Positions 21,535 through 45,689 are shown, counted from the first letter of the stretch. The stretch is DNA of 64,000 nt from Candidatus Omnitrophota bacterium (GCA_018818105.1 JAHISK010000055.1:4781-68780), one strand, 5' to 3'. The notes: generated by a model not told the origin, from the sequence alone. Numbers and translations are program-made.

Positions 21535-21572
21535 TAAAAAAAAGCCGGGTTACCTTTTGAGGTAACCCGGCT
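21535..21572 (-). terminator. Intrinsic terminator / attenuator hairpin (perfect 12-bp stem AGCCGGGTTACC/GGTAACCCGGCT, loop UUUUGA, then U8) about 20 nt upstream of the giant-gene start codon
   Basis: Plus strand reads aaaaaaaagccgggttaccttttgaggtaacccggct. On the minus strand this is a hairpin followed by TTTTTTTT and then ATGCCGGAAGTAAAAAAGATATGGGC. Confidence 0.6.
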
Positions 21573-21599
21573 ATCCTGAATCAATTTTGTACCGAAAGA

Positions 21600-21740
21600 C
21601 GATAGATGTCCGTTCTCTACATCGCTCGGACGATAAACGTTCTTATACTCTCGTTTTTCGTCCTTCGTCTTACATCCTTCGTTACTAGGACCCGTGGCTT
21701 TGCGCCTCCCGATTACTCGAGATTTGCCATTTCTGAAAAA
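21600..21740 (-). ncRNA. Candidate c-di-GMP-I (GEMM) riboswitch aptamer in the 5' leader of the giant gene
   Basis: The minus-strand leader reads AAAUGGCAAAUCUCGA-GUAA-UCGGGAGGCGCAAAGCCACGGGUCC. This resembles the remembered Vc2 consensus GGCAAACC-stem-GNRA-stem-GGGACGCAAAGCC-nCGGG, including a 6-bp stem capped by a GNRA tetraloop. A terminator lies immediately downstream. Not run through a covariance model. Confidence 0.35.
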
Positions 21741-27453: not shown

Positions 27454-27485
27454 AGAAACCAGTAACCAGTTTACAGAAACCAGAA
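27454..27485. repeat. REP-like repeat AGAAACCAGTAACCAGTTTACAGAAACCAGAA; left arm of the inverted pair flanking 4HB gene 27497..27853
   Basis: Identical copy at 29112-29143. Reverse-complement partner at 27880-27914. Confidence 0.7.
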
Positions 27486-27496
27486 AATTGCCCAAA

Positions 27497-27853
27497 TCAA
27501 CTATTTAATAAACCTCTCAGCATACTTGTAATTTCTCTAACAGCTAACCTTAACTCTAAATAACATTGTTCCTCTATCAAATTCTGTCTTTTTAAAACAT
27601 TAAGAACAGACGCACATTCTCTTGCAGAATCAGAAGAAATATCAAAATATCTATTCTTTTCTTTTTTAGATTTCTTACCATTTCCCTCTGCTATATTATT
27701 AGCAATAGATAATGCCGCTCTAATAAAATTATTACCAATAGAATATTTATAATCGATTTTTAATCGTTTATATATTTCAAATACTTTGTCTATAAAAACT
27801 AACGTCTTCTGATATACTTTTAAATTTTCAAAATCAAATCTAAACTCTTCCAT
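27497..27853 (-). CDS. Four-helix-bundle protein (23S rRNA intervening-sequence protein family, TIGR02436-like)
   Basis: YQKTLVFIDKVFEIYKRL...AALSIANNIAEGNGK...ECASVLNVL is typical of this family. Confidence 0.75.
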   Translation of the reverse strand: MEEFRFDFENLKVYQKTLVFIDKVFEIYKRLKIDYKYSIGNNFIRAALSIANNIAEGNGKKSKKEKNRYFDISSDSARECASVLNVLKRQNLIEEQCYLELRLAVREITSMLRGLLNS

Positions 27854-27855
27854 TC

Positions 27856-29088
27856 CTATTTGCTCTCTCTTCTCTCTTGTTCTCTGGTTTCTGTACTCTG
27901 GTTTCTGGTTTCTAATAAAAAATATCTCCCCGGCCCAGAAGGGCCATGCGGCATTATAAATCCTTTATCCTGCATTTCCTTTAAATCACGCGCCGCTGTT
28001 GGAGTAGAAACATCAAATTTATCAGAATACTCTTTTCTTGTAATTTTTTGATTTTCTTTTAAATATTCTAATGTTTTTCTTTGTCGGTCATTTAAATCTA
28101 AGATTCGCGTAGCCTCATTTTTACTAACTTCAGCCACCGGAGATTTTTCTTCTAGCACAGGTTCATTTACTGATTCCTTACTCTGAAGTTGTTTTCTTAA
28201 AGATTCTATTTCCCTATTTAAATCCTCAATCTTTTTTGACAATTCTTCATTTTTTTTAATCATTTCCTCATCTACCGACTCTTGGATAGGTTGCTCTTCT
28301 CTTTCTTTAATCTGCCGCTGTAATTCATCATTTCTACCCACAGCTTCCTTTAACTTAGCCGCTACTTGCTCAAGCTTTACCGCCTGTTCCTTTATTTTCT
28401 GTTTGCTCTGCTCCGGATCCGGCGCTTGCGCTGCCTGAGCTTGGTAATCTTTAATTTTTTCGTCTTTATTTTTTAACTCTTCTCTTACTTTATCCAGCTG
28501 ACTCTGGCTTTCCTGAATTTTTGCCTGCATTAAGTCCTCTTTCTTAATAAGTAACTCTTTTTCTTCTTTTAATTTCGCTGACGCGATCTGCGCTTCTTTC
28601 GTTCTTATCTCTAACTCGCTCAATGCTTTACGTAACTCTTCCTCTTTAGTTTTTAACTTGTCGACGGTAGTTTTAAGCTCAGTTTGTAGAGAACCTAATT
28701 TAGAATCAAATCCTGCTTTATTAGCGTCTATTTTATTTAATTGATCCTGAAGCTGGATAACTTTAGCTTCATGAGAATTCTTCTCAACTGTTACATCCTG
28801 AAGTTGATTCCTTAAATTATCTACATTCAAATTAGCATCGTTACATGCTTGATCTTTTTCCTGTAGCTGCTTCTTTAGTATTTCTAATTCCTCGGATAAA
28901 GAATTTATTTGCTCTCCAGCCGCTGATTCCTGTTCATTATAAGATTCTTTCGTTTCTTCTCGAGCATGTTTTATATTATCTTCCCGCGAAGACTCCCTTT
29001 CCTCAGCAGATTTCTCTTCGGGGAAAAAAATATAGTACAACATAACAATCGCGCCCGCCCCAACTAATAATACAAGAATAAAAAACAA
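27856..29088 (-). CDS. Membrane-anchored long coiled-coil protein with C-terminal winged-helix DNA-binding-like domain
   Basis: N-terminal TM helix MFFILVLLVGAGAIVMLYYIFF, then about 300 aa of K/E/Q-rich coiled coil. C-terminus reads ITRKEYSDKFDVSTPTAARDLKEMQDKGFI...GRYFLL. The 3' end of the ORF reads through a GAAACCAG repeat. Confidence 0.55.
   Translation of the reverse strand: MFFILVLLVGAGAIVMLYYIFFPEEKSAEERESSREDNIKHAREETKESYNEQESAAGEQINSLSEELEILKKQLQEKDQACNDANLNVDNLRNQLQDVTVEKNSHEAKVIQLQDQLNKIDANKAGFDSKLGSLQTELKTTVDKLKTKEEELRKALSELEIRTKEAQIASAKLKEEKELLIKKEDLMQAKIQESQSQLDKVREELKNKDEKIKDYQAQAAQAPDPEQSKQKIKEQAVKLEQVAAKLKEAVGRNDELQRQIKEREEQPIQESVDEEMIKKNEELSKKIEDLNREIESLRKQLQSKESVNEPVLEEKSPVAEVSKNEATRILDLNDRQRKTLEYLKENQKITRKEYSDKFDVSTPTAARDLKEMQDKGFIMPHGPSGPGRYFLLETRNQSTETREQERRESK
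27880..27914. repeat. REP-like repeat (CTGGTTTC orientation); right arm of the inverted pair flanking 4HB gene 27497..27853
   Basis: Sequence reads ttctctggtttctgtactctggtttctggtttctaa, the reverse complement of the 27454-27485 family. Confidence 0.7.
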
Positions 29089-29111: not shown

Positions 29112-29208
29112 AGAAACCAGTAACCAGTTTACAGAAACCAGAATTAAATTTTTATTAATTTCCTCTGGTTATTCTTTCTTCTTTTACATTCTCTGGTTTC
29201 TGGTTACT
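29112..29208. repeat. REPIN-like doublet: GAAACCAG-family repeat (29112-29143) and its inverted partner (29191-29208) separated by about 47 nt
   Basis: agaaaccagtaaccagtttacagaaaccagaa ... ctctggtttctggttact. Confidence 0.65.
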
Positions 29209-32616: not shown

Positions 32617-32645
32617 GGGTCAAGGGGCAGGGGGCAAGGGGCAAG
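32617..32645. repeat. GC-rich TTGMCCC/GGGKCAA-family repeat; left arm of the inverted pair flanking 4HB gene 32652..33041
   Basis: GGGTCAAGGGGCAGGGGGCAAGGGGCAAG; about 25/28 complementary to 33059-33087. Confidence 0.7.
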
Positions 32646-32651
32646 AAAAAT

Positions 32652-33041
32652 TTAAGATTTCAAAGACTTAATTAACCCCTTTAATAACCGGCCTACTTCT
32701 TGACGTCTATCATTAATCATTTTGTATATTTCAATATTTATATAACCTAAATCTTTAGAAAATAAAAAATACGTTTCCACTTCACCTAATGACCCTTTTG
32801 CTATCATCAAAAACTGAATATATTCTTTACGATACTGCCTTTCATACCCCTCTGCTATATTAGCAACAACCGATATAGCGGCCCTTCTCAATTGAGAAAC
32901 TAAACCATACTGTTCACTCCTAGGATAATCACGCGTAATTTTATATACTTCTAACGCCAATTCATATGCTTTCTTCCATACAATTAACTTCTTAAAACCC
33001 TTCTCCATTTCTTTCTCTCTATATTTTTCTCTCTTAACCAT
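32652..33041 (-). CDS. Four-helix-bundle protein (23S rRNA intervening-sequence protein family), second copy
   Basis: KKLIVWKKAYELALEVYKITRDYP...QLRRAAISVVANIAEGYERQ...MIAKGSLGEVETY. AAGGAAGAAG ribosome-binding site upstream. Confidence 0.8.
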   Translation of the reverse strand: MVKREKYREKEMEKGFKKLIVWKKAYELALEVYKITRDYPRSEQYGLVSQLRRAAISVVANIAEGYERQYRKEYIQFLMIAKGSLGEVETYFLFSKDLGYINIEIYKMINDRRQEVGRLLKGLIKSLKS

Positions 33042-36000
33042 CTCTATATTCTTCTTCCTTGACCCTTGCCCCCTGACCCTTGCCCCTATTTATAAATGCT
33101 GTAACAGAATCATACAGCACAGGGACGAACAAAAGCGTTAGGAACGTGGACGAAAGCAAACCTCCAATTACAGTAATAGCCATAGGAGCCCGTAATTCAG
33201 AACCTTCACCAATACCTATAGCAAGAGGTATCATTCCTAAGACAGTGGTGAAAGTCGTCATAAGAATAGGACGTAGCCGATGCTGACTGGCTTCTAAAAT
33301 AACTTCTTTTAAAGGCAAATTCTTTTTCTTTAAATGGTTCATATAATCCACTAAAACTATCCCGTTATTTACAACAATCCCGCCCAACATAATAGCGCCC
33401 AAAAGAGCGACTACATTCAAAGAAGTAGAAGTTAACTTCAACGCGACGCTTATGCCTATAAGAGAAAGAGGAACTGTAAACATAATAATAAACGGCTGCC
33501 ATAACGACTCAAATTGCGCCGCCATAATCATATAAATTAAAAGAATCGCTAATAAAAAAGCAAACTTCATGCTGTTAAATGATTCCCGCATACGAACGCT
33601 CTCACCAGAAAGGCCTACGTTATATCCTAACGGAATATTTAATTTCTCTACTATACCGGTTAACTGCGTATTAATTTCGCTAACACTGCGTCCATATAAA
33701 TTAGCATTAACAGATATTGTACGGCGCTGGTCTATCCGTTTAATTTCTGTGGGGCCTCTGCCTTTCGCAAGACGGGCAACCTGATAAAGAGGAACCATAA
33801 CATTCCTATACGCCGTCCTAATACCTAAAGATCTGATTCGGGATAAATTCTTTCTATCTTCTTCCTGCAAACGTACTCTAATATCTATAGGATGCGTTAC
33901 ATCCTCCTTAAACTTAGTAAAAACTCTTCCCTTAATGGCAGTATGCGCGGTTAACGCGATATCCTGAGTAGATAAACCTAACAAAGAAGCTTGGTCTTTA
34001 AGTATATATATTTTTGTTTCGGGAGAAGAAGGGACCCTATCATCTTCTATACTATAAACGCCTTTTATCGAAGATAGTTCTTTTTTTATCTGATCAGCTA
34101 CATCGCCCATCTGTAAAAGGTTCTCCCCTTTTATTTCAATTTGAATAGGTTTATCCTCAAACGCTTCCTTCAAAACACTTTCCTGCAAAACATACTCTAA
34201 CTGAGCGCCGATTAAATGTTTTTCTTTCATAATATCCCGCAAACGTTGAATAACGTCTTGCGTGGAAAACAACGAAACAGCTTCCTTTTCCTTTAATTCT
34301 TTATAGGAATACAGCTTCACCATAATTTCGCCCTCATAAGAAGCCAAAGTTTGCACCGCTTTTTCCGTGGGGTTATCTTTATCCGAACCTACTTTTATAC
34401 TAACATCTTTAACTTCTTTTATTTCATTGAGAAGAACTTCCTCCACCATACGCACAGCGTTATCAGTAACTTCTAAACTTGTTCCCGGCTCCATGGTAAG
34501 TTTTATTATAAACTGCCGCTGATCAAGCCGAGGCAAAAATTCGCTGGGCACAGTTTTTAAAATCACCAAGCTTAAAAGAAATAATCCTATAACAACAAAT
34601 ACAAGAATCGCTTTATTATCTAAAGTTTTTGATAAAAGACGGCGGTATAAATTATCAATTCCATTAAAAAGGAGATCAACTTTTGCTTGGCCGTCTTTGC
34701 TTTCTTTAATTCCACCGCCTAAAGAAGAAAGCATCGGCACCAACATCAACGCTATCAATAACGACGAAACCAAAGAAAAGGTTACCGTAAACGCCAATTG
34801 CTTAAAAAGCTGTCCGGCTATACCGGAAAGAAACATCATCGGAAAAAATACGCACACTGTTGTGAGAGTGGAAGAGATAATTGCTCCTTTCATCTGAAAA
34901 GACGCCTGAGACACAAGCGATAACGCTTCTTGCTTTGAGAGTTTTTTGTCCTGTTTTGATCTTTCCTGCTGCCGGCGAAAAATATTTTCAAGAACAACAA
35001 TAGAGTTATCCACTAACATTCCTACTCCTAATGCCAACCCTCCTAAAGAAATCATGTTCAAAGAAATATTCCTGGAAAACATCAATATAAACACACCCAT
35101 AATTGATATAGGAATAGCTGTAGCAATAATTAAAGAAATCTTAAGGTTCCTTAAAAAAACGAGTAAAACTAGAAAAGCCAAAACCCCGCCGCCTATGGCA
35201 GCGTTCCTAACTCCTTTTATCGAATTCGCGACATACACCGACTCATCATAAGCAATATCCAACTTTACGTCTAAAGATGGATTTTTATTCATTCGATACA
35301 CTTCTTCTTTAACCCTCTCACAAACGTCTATTACATTAGCGCCAGACTGTCTCTTAATTGAAATAGATATGTTTTCAACACCATTATGGCGGGAAATACT
35401 TTCTTTTTCTTTAGCTACATTTTTTACCTGAGCGATATCACTTAGCCGAACTAACCGGGCAGTTTTCTCCTGAAGCTCATCCTTAATGCCAAGTTGGCGT
35501 TCTCTCTGCTCTTCTTCAGTTTCAGGAACATCCACTAAAACTGTTAACTCACTGATTTCATCTAACGTCTCAAACTCACCTATTGTTCTGACCAAATGCT
35601 CATAAAAACTTCCCTTTATCGACCCCGCGGGATAATTAATATTTGATTTTTTTATTACCGAGCCTAAATCCAACAAAGAAAGGCCTGAAGCCTGTAGCCG
35701 TGACTGATCAACCTCTATTAGAATCTCCCGCCCAACTCCTCCTGTAATAACCGCGGCGGCAACACCTTTTAACTTTTCTAAATCATCTTTCATTTGCCGC
35801 TCACAAACTTCCCTCAATTCTAACAAAGACTCTTTTCCCGTCACGCTTAACACAATAACCGGTTTCTCAAAGGGATTATACTTCATAACAATCGGTTCAC
35901 CGCAATCCCTCGGAAGGCGTTCCTTAACTAAATCTATTTTTTCACGCACCTCCAAAGCGGCTAAATCCATGTTCGTTCCCCAGTCAAAACGCACCATTAC

Positions 36001-36291
36001 CATAGATAACGCTTCCCGGGAAATTGAGCTAATCTGTTTAACCCCGCTTATCGCCCCGCCCGATTCTTCTAAAATTTGAGATATTAAACTTTCAACTTCT
36101 TCCGGGGCCGCCCCTTCATAGGGTGTCAAAATTGTTATTTGAGGATACGATATGGAAGGAAATAATTCCTGAGAAAGGCGGGACAAAGAAACCATTCCCA
36201 TAACTACAACCGCTAAAAAAATCATAGCCGTAGTAACAGGGCGCATTATGAAGATACTAATCTTTTCCAGTTTCTTTCTTCGGTCTTTCAT
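33034..36291 (-). CDS. RND efflux transporter permease subunit (AcrB family), copy 1. The start is probably ATG at 36291; the track start 36333 reads through a repeat
   Basis: MRPVTTAMIFLAVVVMGMVSLSRL...PYEGAAPEEVE; 12-TM RND fold. Confidence 0.8.
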   Translation of the reverse strand: MKDRRKKLEKISIFIMRPVTTAMIFLAVVVMGMVSLSRLSQELFPSISYPQITILTPYEGAAPEEVESLISQILEESGGAISGVKQISSISREALSMVMVRFDWGTNMDLAALEVREKIDLVKERLPRDCGEPIVMKYNPFEKPVIVLSVTGKESLLELREVCERQMKDDLEKLKGVAAAVITGGVGREILIEVDQSRLQASGLSLLDLGSVIKKSNINYPAGSIKGSFYEHLVRTIGEFETLDEISELTVLVDVPETEEEQRERQLGIKDELQEKTARLVRLSDIAQVKNVAKEKESISRHNGVENISISIKRQSGANVIDVCERVKEEVYRMNKNPSLDVKLDIAYDESVYVANSIKGVRNAAIGGGVLAFLVLLVFLRNLKISLIIATAIPISIMGVFILMFSRNISLNMISLGGLALGVGMLVDNSIVVLENIFRRQQERSKQDKKLSKQEALSLVSQASFQMKGAIISSTLTTVCVFFPMMFLSGIAGQLFKQLAFTVTFSLVSSLLIALMLVPMLSSLGGGIKESKDGQAKVDLLFNGIDNLYRRLLSKTLDNKAILVFVVIGLFLLSLVILKTVPSEFLPRLDQRQFIIKLTMEPGTSLEVTDNAVRMVEEVLLNEIKEVKDVSIKVGSDKDNPTEKAVQTLASYEGEIMVKLYSYKELKEKEAVSLFSTQDVIQRLRDIMKEKHLIGAQLEYVLQESVLKEAFEDKPIQIEIKGENLLQMGDVADQIKKELSSIKGVYSIEDDRVPSSPETKIYILKDQASLLGLSTQDIALTAHTAIKGRVFTKFKEDVTHPIDIRVRLQEEDRKNLSRIRSLGIRTAYRNVMVPLYQVARLAKGRGPTEIKRIDQRRTISVNANLYGRSVSEINTQLTGIVEKLNIPLGYNVGLSGESVRMRESFNSMKFAFLLAILLIYMIMAAQFESLWQPFIIMFTVPLSLIGISVALKLTSTSLNVVALLGAIMLGGIVVNNGIVLVDYMNHLKKKNLPLKEVILEASQHRLRPILMTTFTTVLGMIPLAIGIGEGSELRAPMAITVIGGLLSSTFLTLLFVPVLYDSVTAFINRGKGQGARVKEEEYRDG
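33059..33087. repeat. GC-rich TTGMCCC-family repeat; right arm of the inverted pair flanking 4HB gene 32652..33041
   Basis: TTGACCCTTGCCCCCTGACCCTTGCCCCT. Confidence 0.7.
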
Positions 36292-36304
36292 AAAAATATT
36301 TTGT

Positions 36305-36662
36305 AGGGTCAAGGGGCAGGGGTCATGGGTCAAAGAATTAGAAAGCTAACCAATCCTTTCACCAAAAACCTAATTTTATATCTAAAAACGAAACTAAATA
36401 CCCCTTATTACAACTTAATATCTATTTTAAAGATAAAAACAAATATTGAAAGATATTTTTATCTCTTACCCCATTTTCTTATCTTGATTTATCTTTTTCT
36501 ATCTCCCCTCTTCATCTATGGACTATGGTCTATCGACTATGGACGAATTATTCTCCCTTCTCCCCTTTCTCTAACTTTGCTTTCTCCTTAACCTAAAACT
36601 TAAAACCATTTTTCCTTGCCCCTTGACCCTTCTTCTCTTAATTCTTCCTTGACCCATGACCC
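36305..36662. repeat. Inverted pair of TTGMCCC-family repeats (36305-36334 and 36612-36662) enclosing about 270 bp with no convincing gene
   Basis: GGGTCAAGGGGCAGGGGTCATGGGTCAAAG ... CCTTGCCCCTTGACCC...CCTTGACCCATGACCCAT. The interior contains ctatggac x3. Confidence 0.55.
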
Positions 36663-36780
36663 ATATCATTTACCATTTATCATTTATCATTTTAAATTAT
36701 TATATATTTTTCCTCTTAAGCAAATGCTAATTTTAAAATGTTAATTGGTAAATTTAAAATTTCTATCCCTTGACCCTCTT
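36647..36780. repeat. About 150-bp dispersed repeat element, copy A, with (CATTTAC/T) x3 tract; it abuts the stop codon of gene 36781..38631 and lies upstream of the RND locus
   Basis: More than 90% identical to 44555-44710 outside the heptad tract. Both ends carry TTGACCC boxes. Confidence 0.8.
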
Positions 36781-38631
36781 TTACATCTGCTCCACCATCT
36801 CCACATACTCCTGCCCCCAATCTTTCACTAAATCACCAAAATTATCCGAAATAAAACTTTTTAATTCGTCAGGGTCTTCATTAATAGGAATGCTTACTTC
36901 ACCAAAACTTTGATTATCCACTATCTTTTCTAGAGCTTGAACTTTTAAACTTAACATCCTAAGATAAACTTTACCTAATTCTGTATCTAAATCAATTAAA
37001 TCTTGCTGATACGTTTCTTGAAACTTATCAAACATATCTAAAACTTTACCATTTTCACCCCACTCTAAATAATTCTGAGCTTGACTACGCATAAAATTAG
37101 CGTCCGCGGCAGCAGCATCAACCTCTGACGCGGTTATTGTGAAATCTATATCATCTACAAAAGTAATCTCAATCAAATAAATATCTTCTTTATTCAAAGC
37201 GGCCGCGGATAATCCATAACTTGCTCTAGCAAACATTTCAACTCCGGCTTTATTCATTGTTTTATATTCCTGAATAACATCATAAATCGTACCGGCAACA
37301 TCCTCAGTTGTATGGAAAAAATCCCGTAACTGCTCAACATTCATATCCTGAACTTGATAAAAACATACATACCTTTCCTGCAAAAGACTATCCCCTATCT
37401 CAAACACCACTTTATCTCCGTCTTTATACATATCATTAATCCAATCCTGATTAAATTCATTAACTTCCAAACCTATGGAATCCATCCCTCCCTCAACAGT
37501 ATATGATATATATTTACCTGAATAAACCGATTCCCCGGTAGCTGAATCAAGACTAAGCTCCCAAGCCTTCACATGTAAACTTCCTTTCCACTCATGAACC
37601 CAACTGGCATATTCAGTACCATCATCATCAATAACCCCCTGTTCAGCTATGCCGAACGCATTATGTTTTTCATAAGTTCCTTCAAAATAATTTATCACTT
37701 TAACTAAATGATGATTCTCCCAAAGATAGGTTATCTTTAACGCCCCAAACCTATCCCGCGTCTCATACATTTCGCTTCCCCACTTATCAAACTTGGTAAC
37801 ATCACCGTCAACCATTTCATACTGAAACATTTTTCCGTCTTTTAAAATAGGATTATCCTCCTCATCAACAACTAAAATACTTATCTTCTCAATTCTCAAT
37901 AAACTATCCCCTTCCTGCCGCCAATAAGCTACTAATTCTCCATCCTTAGACCCTTTTCTTTCTTCTATGGGACTGCCGTTATTATAGCGTTTCCAAACTT
38001 GAGTGGCAAGATTATGCTCCCAATATCCTGTTCCCGACTGATCATATTCATAGATATGCGTAATATTATGATGGCTATCATTCCTTTCCATAAGATTATT
38101 TCTCCAGTACCGTTCATATTCTAAAACATCACCCCATTCATTCGTCACCCTACATTCAATTACTTTACTACCATTCTGTTCCCCTACCGCATACCAATCA
38201 TATTTCCTTATCGCGAGTTTCTCATCAAGACGCCATCCATTAGCCTCAAATGTTTCCGCGTCCATCTTAAACGCTTTTTTACCGCCTCTAAACCGAATAA
38301 CATCTCCATTCCGTTCAATCCGCAACTCAGGTTTACCATTAAAATAGAAAGTTTTGTTACCATATTTATCAACAATTATTGAAGGATATTTTGACGCGAT
38401 TTGAGGAATTTGAACGTTTAAAGGATAAGCCACTTCAGCATAATTACTTATTTGTTTCCACTGCGGTATTATACGGGGATCACCGGGATCAGTATGAAAA
38501 GCGGACCCGGGAAGAACCATCATGTCTTGAGCAAAACTTAGTAAAGGAAAAATAACGATAAAGACAAAAAGTATTCCTTTAAAATACTTATTGAAATTAA
38601 TTCCTTTTATAATTTTTTCTATATGATTCAT
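36781..38631 (-). CDS. Secreted protein of unknown function (616 aa from ATG 38631; signal peptide ILFVFIVIFPLLSFA)
   Basis: AAGGAAGAAG ribosome-binding site before ATG 38631; the track start 38781 overlaps the upstream gene. W/Y/E-rich beta-type sequence, no motif recognised. Confidence 0.6.
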   Translation of the reverse strand: MNHIEKIIKGINFNKYFKGILFVFIVIFPLLSFAQDMMVLPGSAFHTDPGDPRIIPQWKQISNYAEVAYPLNVQIPQIASKYPSIIVDKYGNKTFYFNGKPELRIERNGDVIRFRGGKKAFKMDAETFEANGWRLDEKLAIRKYDWYAVGEQNGSKVIECRVTNEWGDVLEYERYWRNNLMERNDSHHNITHIYEYDQSGTGYWEHNLATQVWKRYNNGSPIEERKGSKDGELVAYWRQEGDSLLRIEKISILVVDEEDNPILKDGKMFQYEMVDGDVTKFDKWGSEMYETRDRFGALKITYLWENHHLVKVINYFEGTYEKHNAFGIAEQGVIDDDGTEYASWVHEWKGSLHVKAWELSLDSATGESVYSGKYISYTVEGGMDSIGLEVNEFNQDWINDMYKDGDKVVFEIGDSLLQERYVCFYQVQDMNVEQLRDFFHTTEDVAGTIYDVIQEYKTMNKAGVEMFARASYGLSAAALNKEDIYLIEITFVDDIDFTITASEVDAAAADANFMRSQAQNYLEWGENGKVLDMFDKFQETYQQDLIDLDTELGKVYLRMLSLKVQALEKIVDNQSFGEVSIPINEDPDELKSFISDNFGDLVKDWGQEYVEMVEQM

Positions 38632-41789: not shown

Positions 41790-41919
41790 ACTACCGTACC
41801 TCCCTCTTTTTTCTACAATATTATTATTCTTATTATTACCTACTCTCTGTTTTCTCATCCTTCGTCCTTCTTCCCTCATCTCTCGTTTCATCTTCATCCT
41901 CCCCATATTTATTTATATC

Positions 41920-42390
41920 TATTATCTCCAATCTCCCATCTATAATCTGCCATCTAAAAAAAAGCCGGGTCACCCAACTTTTCTGTTCGGCAACCCGGCT
42001 CCTAAATACGTAGAAACGCGACTAAAAATACTTTAGCAATCACATTTCCACTATCTACGCCGTGGCTTTCCCCTCTTACTCTAAACGAATAAGAAGAGCT
42101 TTTTCGTAGAAAGTCAAAATTAACTTATTCCCTTCAAAGAACCTTTATTTCACCCACTTACCACCTCGTAGGTGGTAAGTATCTGCTATCTGAAATCTCC
42201 CATCTCCCATCTAAAAAAAAGAAACCGGGCCACCTTCTATTCGGCAGCCCGGCTAAACTAAATGTAGAAATGCGCATGTATCTAAGAGAAAAACCTCCCC
42301 TCATCAACTGCTACCTTCTACTCCCGTGGCTTTCCCCTCTTACTCTAAACGAATAAGAAGAGCTTTTCGTAGAAAGAAAACTAAGAAAAA
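41920..42390 (-). repeat. Two tandem ~264-bp leader units, each ending in a GCCGGG hairpin terminator (41955-42000 and 42212-42253), upstream of secreted-protein gene 38760..41789
   Basis: Conserved block ccgtggctttcccctcttactctaaacgaataagaagagctttt(t)cgtagaaag at 42060-42114 and 42324-42376. AATCTCCCATCT repeats sit before each A-tract plus hairpin. Confidence 0.65.
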
Positions 42391-42711
42391 AATAGCCCGA
42401 CTAAATAACTATTTTCCTCTATTATAATAAAGAACTGTTAAATTCCTAATTACCCTAATTGTTAAATACTTATTGAAAATATTGATCTTATGCCTCCCCT
42501 TTGGCATGTTACACATATATACCATATATTTACCATATTTTTCAAGCTTTTCTAGCATTTTTTTTCAAAAAATTCATCTTCTTTCATAACTATTTGATAA
42601 TCAACCAGTAATGAACCTCAAAAATAGAGAATTTTTATATTTATTTTCCCGTATCTTTAAATAAAGCATATTTTTCACGCATATTAGCCTCTTCGGTATA
42701 AAATAGTTCCC

Positions 42712-42868: not shown

Positions 42869-43498
42869 ATGCAAAAACTACTCGACAATATCTTAAATAC
42901 TCCGGTAAAAGTGAAAATATTACGCTTGCTCACCTACAGGCCCCCCACTTACTTAGTCTCTGGACGAGAAATTGCCCGATTAATACATGTTAGCGCGCCC
43001 ACCGCGCATGCCGCGCTAAAAGAATTATATAATACTGATATTTTGCAATTAGAAATCATTAGCAGAAACCATATCTATCGGCTAAACATAAAGAATAGAA
43101 CCGTTAAAGATATTATTATTCCTATGTTTAAAAAAGAGGAGTCTCTAAAACAGGACATTATTACTTTTATAAAAAAACAGATTACATCTAACAATATAAA
43201 AAAGAACATTATTTCCCTCATTCTCTACGGAAGCTTTCAAACAGAAACAACCACTGAAAAAAGCGACATCGATATAGCAATAATTGCTGAGTCTAGCGCG
43301 GCTACACAAAAAATCGAAAAAACATTCAGTAAAGAGATAACAGATAAATTTCATGATTATTTCGGTATTCATCTCGATATTTACATAAAAACTAAAGAAG
43401 AATTTATAGAGCGGCTCAAGAAAAATTTACCGCCAGTTTCGACATTAATAAAATCTTACTATATAATTTATGGTAAAGATCCTTTGGATTTAAAATAA
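42869..43498 (+). CDS. Winged-HTH + minimal nucleotidyltransferase (MNT, Pol-beta superfamily) protein; antitoxin-like partner of HEPN
   Basis: N-terminal wHTH (LVSGREIARLIHVSAPTAHAALKEL). NTase motif LILYGSFQTETTTEKSDIDIAII. Confidence 0.65.
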   Translation: MQKLLDNILNTPVKVKILRLLTYRPPTYLVSGREIARLIHVSAPTAHAALKELYNTDILQLEIISRNHIYRLNIKNRTVKDIIIPMFKKEESLKQDIITFIKKQITSNNIKKNIISLILYGSFQTETTTEKSDIDIAIIAESSAATQKIEKTFSKEITDKFHDYFGIHLDIYIKTKEEFIERLKKNLPPVSTLIKSYYIIYGKDPLDLK

Positions 43499-43499
43499 A

Positions 43500-43907
43500 A
43501 TGTCTCCTAAAAAAATTAAAATACGACAAGAAGAAAAATCAGCAGCGGCAGATTACCTTAAAAAAGCTGAAGATAATCATGCTGAAATGATACTTGCGTT
43601 ACAAAATAAAAATTATAACGCGGTAGGAACATTAGCCATACAACGCGCTATCTCATCCGCCGATGCTATCTGTGTTTATGAAAAAGGAATAAGATCTATC
43701 TCTGAAGTCCATCTTGATGTATGTGAACTTTTAAAATCTCTGCCCCTTCCAGACGCGAAAGATAAAAGTAATATTTTAAAACGGATTATTGCCAAAAAAA
43801 ATATCATCCAATATGAAAGGCGAAGTATTTACGAAAAAGAAGCACATGAAATAGCTAAATCCGCTAATAGACTTTATCAATGGGTTATTATAGTGCTGAC
43901 AAAATAA
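43500..43907 (+). CDS. HEPN-domain protein; candidate RNase toxin of the HEPN/MNT pair
   Basis: 135 aa, all-alpha, R-x7-H-like motif in ERRSIYEKEAHE. A 1-nt gap to the MNT gene indicates translational coupling. Confidence 0.55.
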   Translation: MSPKKIKIRQEEKSAAADYLKKAEDNHAEMILALQNKNYNAVGTLAIQRAISSADAICVYEKGIRSISEVHLDVCELLKSLPLPDAKDKSNILKRIIAKKNIIQYERRSIYEKEAHEIAKSANRLYQWVIIVLTK

Positions 43908-44545: not shown

Positions 44546-44554
44546 ATCTTTTCT

Positions 44555-44710
44555 TCGTTGACCCATGCCCCATATAATTTACCATTTACCATTTACCATT
44601 TACCATTTACCATTTACCATTTTAAATTATTAAATATTTTTCCTCTTAAGCAAATGATAATTTTAAAATGTTAATTGGTAAATTTAAAATTTCTGACCCT
44701 TGACCCTTTT
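44555..44710. repeat. About 150-bp dispersed repeat element, copy B, with (CATTTAC) x5 tract, between the convergent PIN and CNNM genes
   Basis: Aligns with 36647-36780; differs in heptad copy number and about 6 substitutions. Confidence 0.8.
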
Positions 44711-44714
44711 TATA

Positions 44715-45689
44715 TTATATCTTAATAATCGACGTAAGAATCTCGCGAATTAAATCCTGCAGAGTTACTATTCCATATACTTTTTTATCTTTAATCACTA
44801 AAGCTATACTTTCTTTTTTAGATTTGAGCAGCGTAAATGCTTCATAAAGTTTTTGGTTAGCATTTATCTTTGTTAGCGGACGAATAAACTTTTTCCAATC
44901 ACAGAGAGGGTTATAAAATAAATCATATATATTAATGTATCCAATAATTTCTTTATTCTTTTCTTTCGATGAAAATACCGGATAGCGCGTTAACCCACTC
45001 TTCTTTGCTATTTTTAATATATGGTCATAAGAATCGGAATAATTCACGGTAACCACTTTCTCTAAATCCATGCTGACATCCCTAACATTATCTACCCGAA
45101 AATCAAAAACGTCCTCGATCGCCTGTTGTTCACCTTTATCAATACCCCCTTCTTTCTCTATCTCTTTTATAATAAACTTAATTTCCTCCTTGGTGACAAA
45201 CAAAGATTTCCTTTTCACTTTACCTATAAAAGTTTTTACTAAAAATTTAGTGACCCCATCAATACTCCTTACTCCCAGAAAAAAAAGTTTTTCAAAAAAA
45301 GTAAGTACTCTGCTAACTCGACAATTAAACTCTTCCCTAAAAAGACGGCCTATATTCTTAGGGATAAGCTCCGCGAAAATAACAATTACCGGCGTGTATA
45401 AAAGAGTAATCCACACGTTACTGTTTCCCACTCCTATTTTTATCAAAAAAAATGTGAGCAAACTTGAACTAATTACTAATGAAATATTTGTGCCTATCAA
45501 TGTGGTAGCCAAAAATCTTTCCGGCTCCAGCATAAGACGGTAAACCTCCTCCGCGCGCCAATCCCCTTTAGCCTGGCGATGCCGCAGTTTTATAAGCCGC
45601 GATGAAATAAAACTAATCTCACTAGCGGCGAAAAAAGCCTGTAGCAATATGAAAAATACGCATCCTATTATATAAAAATATATCATCAT
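44715..45689 (-). CDS. CNNM/DUF21 + CBS-pair hemolysin-family (CorC/TlyC-like) membrane protein
   Basis: Four N-terminal TM helices, then CBS pair. Confidence 0.7.
   Translation of the reverse strand: MMIYFYIIGCVFFILLQAFFAASEISFISSRLIKLRHRQAKGDWRAEEVYRLMLEPERFLATTLIGTNISLVISSSLLTFFLIKIGVGNSNVWITLLYTPVIVIFAELIPKNIGRLFREEFNCRVSRVLTFFEKLFFLGVRSIDGVTKFLVKTFIGKVKRKSLFVTKEEIKFIIKEIEKEGGIDKGEQQAIEDVFDFRVDNVRDVSMDLEKVVTVNYSDSYDHILKIAKKSGLTRYPVFSSKEKNKEIIGYINIYDLFYNPLCDWKKFIRPLTKINANQKLYEAFTLLKSKKESIALVIKDKKVYGIVTLQDLIREILTSIIKI

Follow-up and report, generated by a model that had tools for sequence, protein, structure and literature searches.

Extragenic hairpin repeats of bacteria include MITEs and REPINs as well as the Correia, RUP and ERIC elements. 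The SDRs of Nostoc punctiforme (Elhai et al. 2008) are reportedly 21-27 nt long, mobile and hairpin-prone, in a heptad-rich genome. Proteins of family PF05635 are abundant, but we know of no function for them outside diversity-generating retroelements, and to our knowledge the four-helix-bundle protein is no known recombinase. Nor do we know of any explanation so far for the origin of bacterial heptanucleotide repeats. In bacteria no other long simple-sequence repeats are so over-represented (reviewed in PMC4679880 and PMC4692102). The heptads occur between genes as GGGAATC in Xanthomonas (PMC4692102) and as TAACTGA in Beggiatoaceae (PMC4679880), and they are sometimes arranged as inverted pairs able to form stem-loops (PMC4692102). 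The 23S intervening sequence of Coxiella has a 28-bp terminal stem and an S23p ORF and is excised by RNase III; it also contains GACAGAT heptamers whose number varies by strain (PMC4990558).

Here we analyze a heptad-rich repeat in a 64,000-nt window of Omnitrophota DNA. The window corresponds to ENA contig ERZ27247128:k141_1760481 in reverse orientation, and the same DNA is found in MAG GCA_043811225.1 and in Logan SRR6514274. Protein names assign it to Candidatus Omnitrophota. A sequence-only reading had proposed two copies of a dispersed repeat, more than 90% identical across about 115 nt. Both copies were confirmed, as a 55-nt core pattern has two exact matches in the window versus none in 100 shuffles. 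The ~115-nt core common to copies A and B is 98% identical, with two differing positions in the plus-strand alignment, and a direct-repeat search gave 118 nt at 93% identity (36664-36781 and 44594-44711). While the copies are real, their extents had to be corrected to about 36642-36780 and 44551-44714. Read 5' to 3', both run on the minus strand and consist of the following parts.

36781-36783, minus strand: TAA stop of the 640/666-aa gene adjoining copy A
36642-36780, minus strand: copy A, whole element, beginning just past the stop
36764-36776, minus strand: 5' flank heptads of copy A, GGGTCAAGGGATA
36721-36763, minus strand: conserved 5' arm of copy A, GAAATTTTAAATTTACCAATTAACATTTTAAAATTAGCATTTG, with degenerate heptads and stops in three frames
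36695-36720, minus strand: loop of copy A, CTTAAGAGGAAAAATATATAATAATT, resembling the four-helix-bundle gene leader at 33020-33037
36664-36694, minus strand: 3' arm of copy A, the decayed heptad tract TAAAATG ATAAATG ATAAATG GTAAATG ATA
36642-36663, minus strand: 3' flank heptads of copy A, TGGGTCATGGGTCAAGGAAGAA, forming an outer inverted-repeat arm with 36320-36337
44715-44717, minus strand: TAA stop of the 324-aa CNNM/CBS gene adjoining copy B
44551-44714, minus strand: copy B, whole element, occupying the convergent CNNM/PIN_5 spacer
44651-44693, minus strand: conserved 5' arm of copy B
44625-44650, minus strand: loop of copy B
44573-44624, minus strand: 3' arm of copy B, the (GTAAATG)5-6 heptad tract, with a fold z of -3.47

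Each copy adjoins the stop codon of a minus-strand gene and copy B lies between the convergent genes CNNM and PIN_5, both as the sequence-only reading had described; the conserved arm follows the stop after 17 nt (A) or 21 nt (B). The genes upstream of A and B, encoding a 640/666-aa protein without Pfam match and a CNNM/CBS transporter, are unrelated, and so is the sequence around the two copies outside the element. On the plus strand copy A contains one CATTTAC and two CATTTAT heptads and copy B five CATTTAC and one AATTTAC (6.6 copies at 100% by TRF). The period-7 tracts reported by TRF span 36664-36692 (A) and 44577-44622 (B), with heptad numbers of 3 versus 5-6. The copies therefore do differ in heptad number, and slippage is supported as the source of the length difference. 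TTGACCC-type heptads flank copy A and copy B alike, but these boxes belong to genome-wide heptanucleotide arrays.

The family is larger than this pair. At least five copies (A-E) are present in ~85 kb of one Omnitrophota MAG, GCA_043811225.1, the additional three being located in a further 21 kb of the window's MAG (locus L011).

L011 9796-9960: copy C, between a ptsN-like gene and glgC, found by a metagenome scan
L011 14954-15051: copy D, diverged, found with a profile HMM of the core
L011 16217-16325: copy E, diverged, found with a profile HMM of the core

Copy C, located on a separate contig within the ENA assembly and NCBI MAG of the window, is near-identical to A and B, and these three form one subfamily. 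Across all five copies the 36-nt 5' module shows at most 3 mismatches and element length ranges from 98 to 165 nt. A pattern specific for the A-C core had no match in the genome collection, and in the metagenome scan copy C was its sole match. Viral contigs (scanned) and plasmids (blastn) gave no match to the element, which is also absent from 53 kb of two relatives. Logan contigs terminate inside both A and B, as expected of a repeat. Compared with the ENA (L011 16217-16320) and JGI assemblies, copy E of the NCBI MAG (L012 13874-13976) carries two substitutions, T>A and C>A, in its 5' arm and has an equal heptad number, which points to strain-level variation in the arm.

Only 8 kb separate A from B, and no other pair of copies is as similar, as a simple segmental duplication of one intergenic region would predict. 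We give this explanation practically no credence, as the flanks are unrelated past the element. The sequence-only reading had named the existence of only two copies as the result that would speak for it; the near-identical copy C on another contig and the two diverged copies, all in the same MAG, exclude it.

On the gene strand the element is composed of a GGGTCAA-type flank (A-C only), arm, loop, TTTAAAAkG, (RTAAATG)n and a second flank, GGGnCAnGGGTCAAGGAAGAA, which follows 3' of the heptad tract in A-C. The AT-rich 5' arm of 43 nt consists of six degenerate heptads (nnCATTT-like) with the conserved consensus GAAATTTTAAATTTAnCAATnAnCATTTTrAAATTAnCATTTr, and the loop measures ~26-30 nt across copies. 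The heptad register is continuous through core, tract and flanks, with an identity of 0.47-0.54 at lags 7 and 14 versus ~0.25-0.3 at other lags. RNAalifold joined the 5' arm to the heptad tract by 21 pairs, with 96% of cells paired compared with 33-50% when the 3' partner was slid. In this model the variable heptad tract is the 3' arm, and the core the 5' arm, of a long imperfect AT-rich hairpin with almost purely A-U stems. Of the heptads in the 5' arm, ATTTACC (A-C) or ATTTATC (D-type) is the one whose pairing partner is expanded in the tract. Since the variable tract is one strand of the hairpin, slippage alters the length of the stem.

Folded as single sequences, copies B, C, D and E gave z values of -3.5, -2.0, -2.4 and -2.5. 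Copy A, with its decayed tract, folded no better than shuffles (z = +0.18); earlier folds of copy A by itself had yielded z = -0.56 and -1.35, and the hairpin was evident after adding the diverged copies. D and E have terminal inverted repeats, with ATTT[T/C]AAATTTAnCA at either end. One compensatory pair was detected, with ACCA/TGGT in A-C and ATCA/TGAT in D, a result matched by 203 of 500 shuffles. RNA-level selection on the hairpin is not demonstrated, as one such pair is too little variation. Two candidate mini-ORFs, MLILKC (core) and MVNGKW* (heptads), were dropped, as TAA occurs in every frame and the heptad differences are non-multiples of 3.

All copies lie between protein-coding genes, and Rfam detected no rRNA gene in the window. 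Five of five copies are co-oriented with the upstream gene and located 0-21 nt past its stop, so that the conserved relation to gene ends proposed for two copies extends to the family. The arm begins 20 nt (C) or 10 nt (E) behind the stop, in D it overlaps the stop, and in four of five copies a co-oriented gene follows downstream. Every copy abuts a stop because each reading frame of the 5' arm contains a stop codon, which ends the upstream ORF at or before the element. This consistent position and orientation past stops would also suit a functional cis-regulatory or sRNA module under selection, such as a 3'-UTR stabiliser, processing site, mobile promoter or sRNA gene, for which the repeat character is secondary. 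The co-oriented downstream genes, the hairpin z as low as -3.5 and sigma-70-like hexamers (TTTAAA-17-TAAAAT) in the 5' arm on the gene strand agree with such a module. Yet we regard it as unlikely: Rfam 15 contains no match to the element at the gathering threshold, nor at E<=1 over 36250-36850, and neither region contains a terminator-like site, GC-rich stem or U-tract. The promoter-like matches are weak (9/12) and the DNA around them is very AT-rich, copy B would have nothing to drive because the gene it faces is convergent, the covariation is insufficient, and the same junctions in relatives lack the element.

The closest complete relative, CP070797.1, shares 79-84% amino-acid identity in the compared proteins (CNNM 79%, GlgC 84%) and is syntenic at three sites. 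There the ptsN-glgC spacer is 53 nt versus 202 nt with copy C, the convergent CNNM/PIN_5 spacer 13 nt versus 169 nt with copy B, and the gene-to-RND spacer 107 nt versus 447 nt with copy A and more heptad arrays. In a second relative (L009), def and DUF6485 share a 4-nt ATGA overlap, compared with a 111-nt spacer containing copy D. Relative to these genomes, the copies appear to be insertions at extreme gene 3' ends or gene junctions, as judged from spacer comparison. The clearest case is copy D, which has a 15-nt terminal inverted repeat (TIR) and a perfect 8/8 direct repeat, ATTAAGAA, on its flanks. Deleting D and one repeat in silico gives def the C-terminus LLKKIKKRRKE* and the ATGA overlap (the relative has LLKKIRRSK*); def now ends with ...KKF* on a TAA from copy D. 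A target duplication (TSD) is clear at D only, and A, B, C and E show ambiguous, unconvincing purine-rich 5-6-mers. The sequence-only reading thus stands in part: a MITE/REP-type element is supported by at least five dispersed copies, inverted arms, empty orthologous sites and TIR plus TSD at one copy, and slippage is supported as well. There is no support for a terminator module, given the missing GC-rich stem and U-tract, or for a known small RNA, given the lack of any Rfam match even at E<=1 and the single compensatory pair.

Site A is more complex, as it contains a further inverted array.

36306-36335, minus strand: TTGACCC-type array just 5' of the RND start, inverted partner of the GGGTCAA arrays at 36614-36662

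The inverted pair of GGGTCAA (36614-36662) and TTGACCC (36306-36337) encloses ~290 nt. Within this stretch, the ancestral spacer upstream of RND can still be recognized by its homology to the 107-nt spacer of CP070797.1. Outer arms that bracket an ancestral spacer, and no imported cargo, are not accounted for by a simple cut-and-paste cassette, and the arrangement hints that heptad arms are able to arise or spread apart from cargo.

The window contains two PF05635 genes, each located between inverted heptad arrays. In an inverted-repeat ranking over the scanned 21-64 kb their flanks are the two longest inverted repeats, and the arms of the element come next.

32617-33086, minus strand: cassette 1, with the PF05635 gene at 32652-33041 and GGGGCAA/GGGTCAA versus TTGCCCC/TTGACCC arms of 43 nt
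27454-27913, minus strand: cassette 2, with a four-helix-bundle gene at 27497-27853 and AAACCAG/CTGGTTT arms of 34 nt
29112-29207, minus strand: ORF-less hairpin with AAACCAG/CTGGTTT arms, downstream of the RND gene stop

The 32-nt CTGGTTT-type arm of the hairpin at 29112-29207 is 100% identical to 27454-27485, and on this match we interpret the hairpin as a putative second gene-less counterpart of a cassette. Cassette 1 is missing in CP070797.1, where the two RND genes are 12 nt apart, and it supplants the final ~5 codons of the RND gene upstream of it. In this RND protein the C-terminal ~17 residues (..NRGKGQGARVKEEEYRDG*) are derived from the cassette arm and leader (33034-33090); the relative ends with ..QILEKINKK*.

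The element shares sequence with such cassettes. The A-C loop, TTAAGAGGAAAAATATA, matches the leader of the window's PF05635 gene, between 5' arm and ORF, with one indel (0.28 matches expected per shuffled window). The leader stretch at 33020-33037 is not coding, since most homologues have 117-118 aa. Moreover, a scan for the AT-type arm motif in one genome per species (185,579 species) gave a single match. It is an inverted-repeat arm beside a PF05635 gene between gatA and gatB in an unclassified MAG (L015), and this cassette has the same junctions as the element, CATTTG ... [ORF] ... TAA-ATTTAAAATG. Its removal in silico restores an ATGA overlap. Homology to a gene-carrying AT-armed cassette rests on this one locus in another MAG. 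A gene-carrying master copy with AT-type arms was not found in the ~85 kb read of this genome, and homologues of the window's four-helix-bundle protein included cassettes with GGGTCAA-type arms (L022) and none with AT-type arms. Many close homologues of this protein are on contigs shorter than ~2 kb, which fits assemblies breaking at flanking repeats. Kinship with the four-helix-bundle genes was overlooked in the sequence-only reading, as were the heptad periodicity of the whole element and the role of the tract as 3' hairpin arm.

Overall, the analysis demonstrates a multi-copy family with hairpin architecture, insertion at 3' ends, one TIR with TSD and sequence links to PF05635; from the shared sequences we infer loss of the ORF as the origin of the element. 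Our favored interpretation, which we hold to be probable, is that A-C are a subfamily of ~100-165-bp non-coding MITE-like elements, ORF-less derivatives of PF05635 hairpin cassettes, inserted at gene 3' ends.

In order to place the cassettes in a wider context, we surveyed 15 PF05635 loci from Omnitrophota (4), an unclassified MAG (1), cyanobacterial plasmids (7), Gemmatimonadota (1), Alphaproteobacteria (1) and Bacteroidota (1). Heptad arrays are present on both flanks in 14 of the 15, covering at least six phyla, and are inverted-complementary in 11. When the flanks of nine inverted loci were shuffled, 0 of 200 shuffles were as good. The genes are typically co-oriented between tightly packed genes, e.g. 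cas6/cas4 and queE/queF. In 50 kb of pNPUN02, examined as a control, there are only about four real period-7 arrays, one of them at the PF05635 gene; another period-7 pair is inverted and ORF-less. In this MAG, 28 period-7 arrays are found in the 64-kb window and 14 in the 21 kb of L011, compared with 1 in 21 kb and 0 in 11 kb at the relatives' loci; the stretches read of these relatives also lack PF05635 genes. The intergenic DNA of this MAG contains period-7 arrays with more than 20 different unit sequences. Apart from the Coxiella 23S intervening sequence, the literature searched contains no report of a link between PF05635 and heptamers. The 15 loci suggest that the tie between PF05635 and heptads may be general. 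We propose, tentatively and with less than even confidence, that PF05635 genes with inverted heptanucleotide arrays form widespread undescribed hairpin cassettes at gene junctions and rRNA in many phyla and, together with ORF-less miniatures, are a major source of STRR heptamers.

Alternatively, STRR-type heptad arrays may have grown in place by replication slippage, the likeness between copies resulting from recurrent expansion without mobility. The many period-7 units of the window and L011, the heptad periodicity throughout the element and the heptad arms surrounding an ancestral spacer at site A are in line with this explanation. It is nevertheless quite improbable, because three unlinked loci share, at 98% identity, a 43-nt arm of six different heptads and a non-repetitive loop of 26 nt, which independent slippage cannot yield, and because the TIR and 8-nt duplication at D are left unaccounted for. 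Slippage in place accounts for the tract but not for the identical arm and loop. Heptad number also varies among copies (3, about 6, 5, and 5 in E), as expected of a phase- or length-variable contingency switch whose heptad number tunes expression of the neighboring gene. Such control has a precedent in the Haemophilus hmw genes, in which heptanucleotide SSRs are reported to act on expression via 5'-UTR structure and RNase III (PMC12721329). Here, however, the tract is outside any ORF and outside the -35/-10 spacer of any recognisable promoter, and the neighbors are unrelated housekeeping genes. No copy differs in heptad number among the ENA, NCBI and JGI assemblies, which all come from one sample. 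A switch is thus very improbable.

Elsewhere in the window, the sole Rfam match is a c-di-GMP-I riboswitch (21558-21738, minus strand, 54.7 bits) directly 5' of a giant gene of 13,326 codons (window 1 to ~21515). A perfect 33-nt x 3.1 tandem repeat at 716-816, with 11 codons per unit, is apparently within this giant gene. At 41907-42400 (minus strand) there are two tandem ~260-nt units with an exact 44-nt repeat (42060-42103 and 42324-42367), each closed by a GC-rich hairpin with a T-run, after which come ATGGGAG-type heptads; the units lie upstream of a 1048-aa gene and are candidates for tandem small-RNA genes or for terminators. Between PIN_5 and the 1048-aa gene, an NTP_transf_2/Polbeta nucleotidyltransferase and an adjacent 135-aa gene (42869-43907) form a toxin-antitoxin-like pair. 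The genes listed for CP070797.1 at the syntenic position do not include a pair of this kind.

If A-C are ORF-less derivatives of PF05635 cassettes, as we favor, a small non-coding heptad-armed hairpin would insert at the extreme 3' end of a gene or at a gene junction, where the stops in its 5' arm would close the upstream ORF at the element or shortly before it. The element, transcribed together with the upstream gene, would form its predicted AU-rich stem. By analogy with rRNA intervening sequences, RNase III might cut this stem, or the stem might shield the 3' end of the upstream mRNA. Element and cassettes would then be mRNA-embedded counterparts of ribosomal intervening sequences. One genome ties heptads to PF05635, as the same hairpin architecture occurs with and without the gene. 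This PF05635-heptad association is the part most worth pursuing: if the tie is general, it would give STRR-type repeats a testable origin, extend the concept of intervening sequences from rRNA to mRNA operons, and define an insertion class that rewrites gene 3' ends and breaks translational coupling of neighbors. For annotation, it would account for odd C-terminal extensions and assembly breaks at element sites.

Like MITEs, the element is short (98-165 nt) and non-coding, with all frames closed by TAA, and present in five dispersed copies in ~85 kb. It also has inverted ends, as D and E carry terminal repeats and the arm of A-C pairs with the heptad tract. MITEs are further characterized by target duplications and empty sites; here A, B, C and D have empty sites, and a perfect 8-nt duplication occurs at D only. 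Where a MITE has a parent element, the larger relatives found here carry a four-helix-bundle gene and no transposase, and no transposase was found in the gene tables of the loci examined. With MITEs and REPINs (PMC3116915) the copies share being extragenic hairpin repeats with insertion polymorphism, often right after stops. Unlike REP and REPIN sequences, their arms are heptanucleotide arrays instead of a unique palindrome, one of them being a slippage-prone tandem array. Furthermore, the arm starts GAAATTTT and ATTTTAAA have no GTAG/CGTC tag, and neither a RAYT nor an IS parent was found in the gene tables of the loci examined.

The STRR heptads of cyanobacteria are similar in that both form intergenic period-7 tandem arrays that vary in copy number and are built from many kinds of unit within a genome. 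The element differs as an arm-loop-arm composite copied between loci at 98% identity in an Omnitrophota host. The SDRs of Nostoc punctiforme are likewise reported to be very small, mobile and hairpin-prone repeats, with unrelated sequences. The rRNA intervening sequences of Coxiella and Leptospira (PMC4990558) have terminal inverted repeats forming a long stem, tandem heptamers of variable number in the stem or leader, and PF05635 cargo, and are deemed selfish. The PF05635 genes of the window show the same stem-plus-ORF layout, and the element shares arm and leader sequence with cassettes of this kind. In contrast to the 23S intervening sequences, the copies are between protein-coding genes and not in helix 25 or 45. 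A and B retain the stem but carry a leader-like remnant in place of an ORF. The element is therefore best described as a heptad-armed miniature hairpin, related to MITE/REPIN-like repeats, to STRR heptads and to rRNA intervening sequences.
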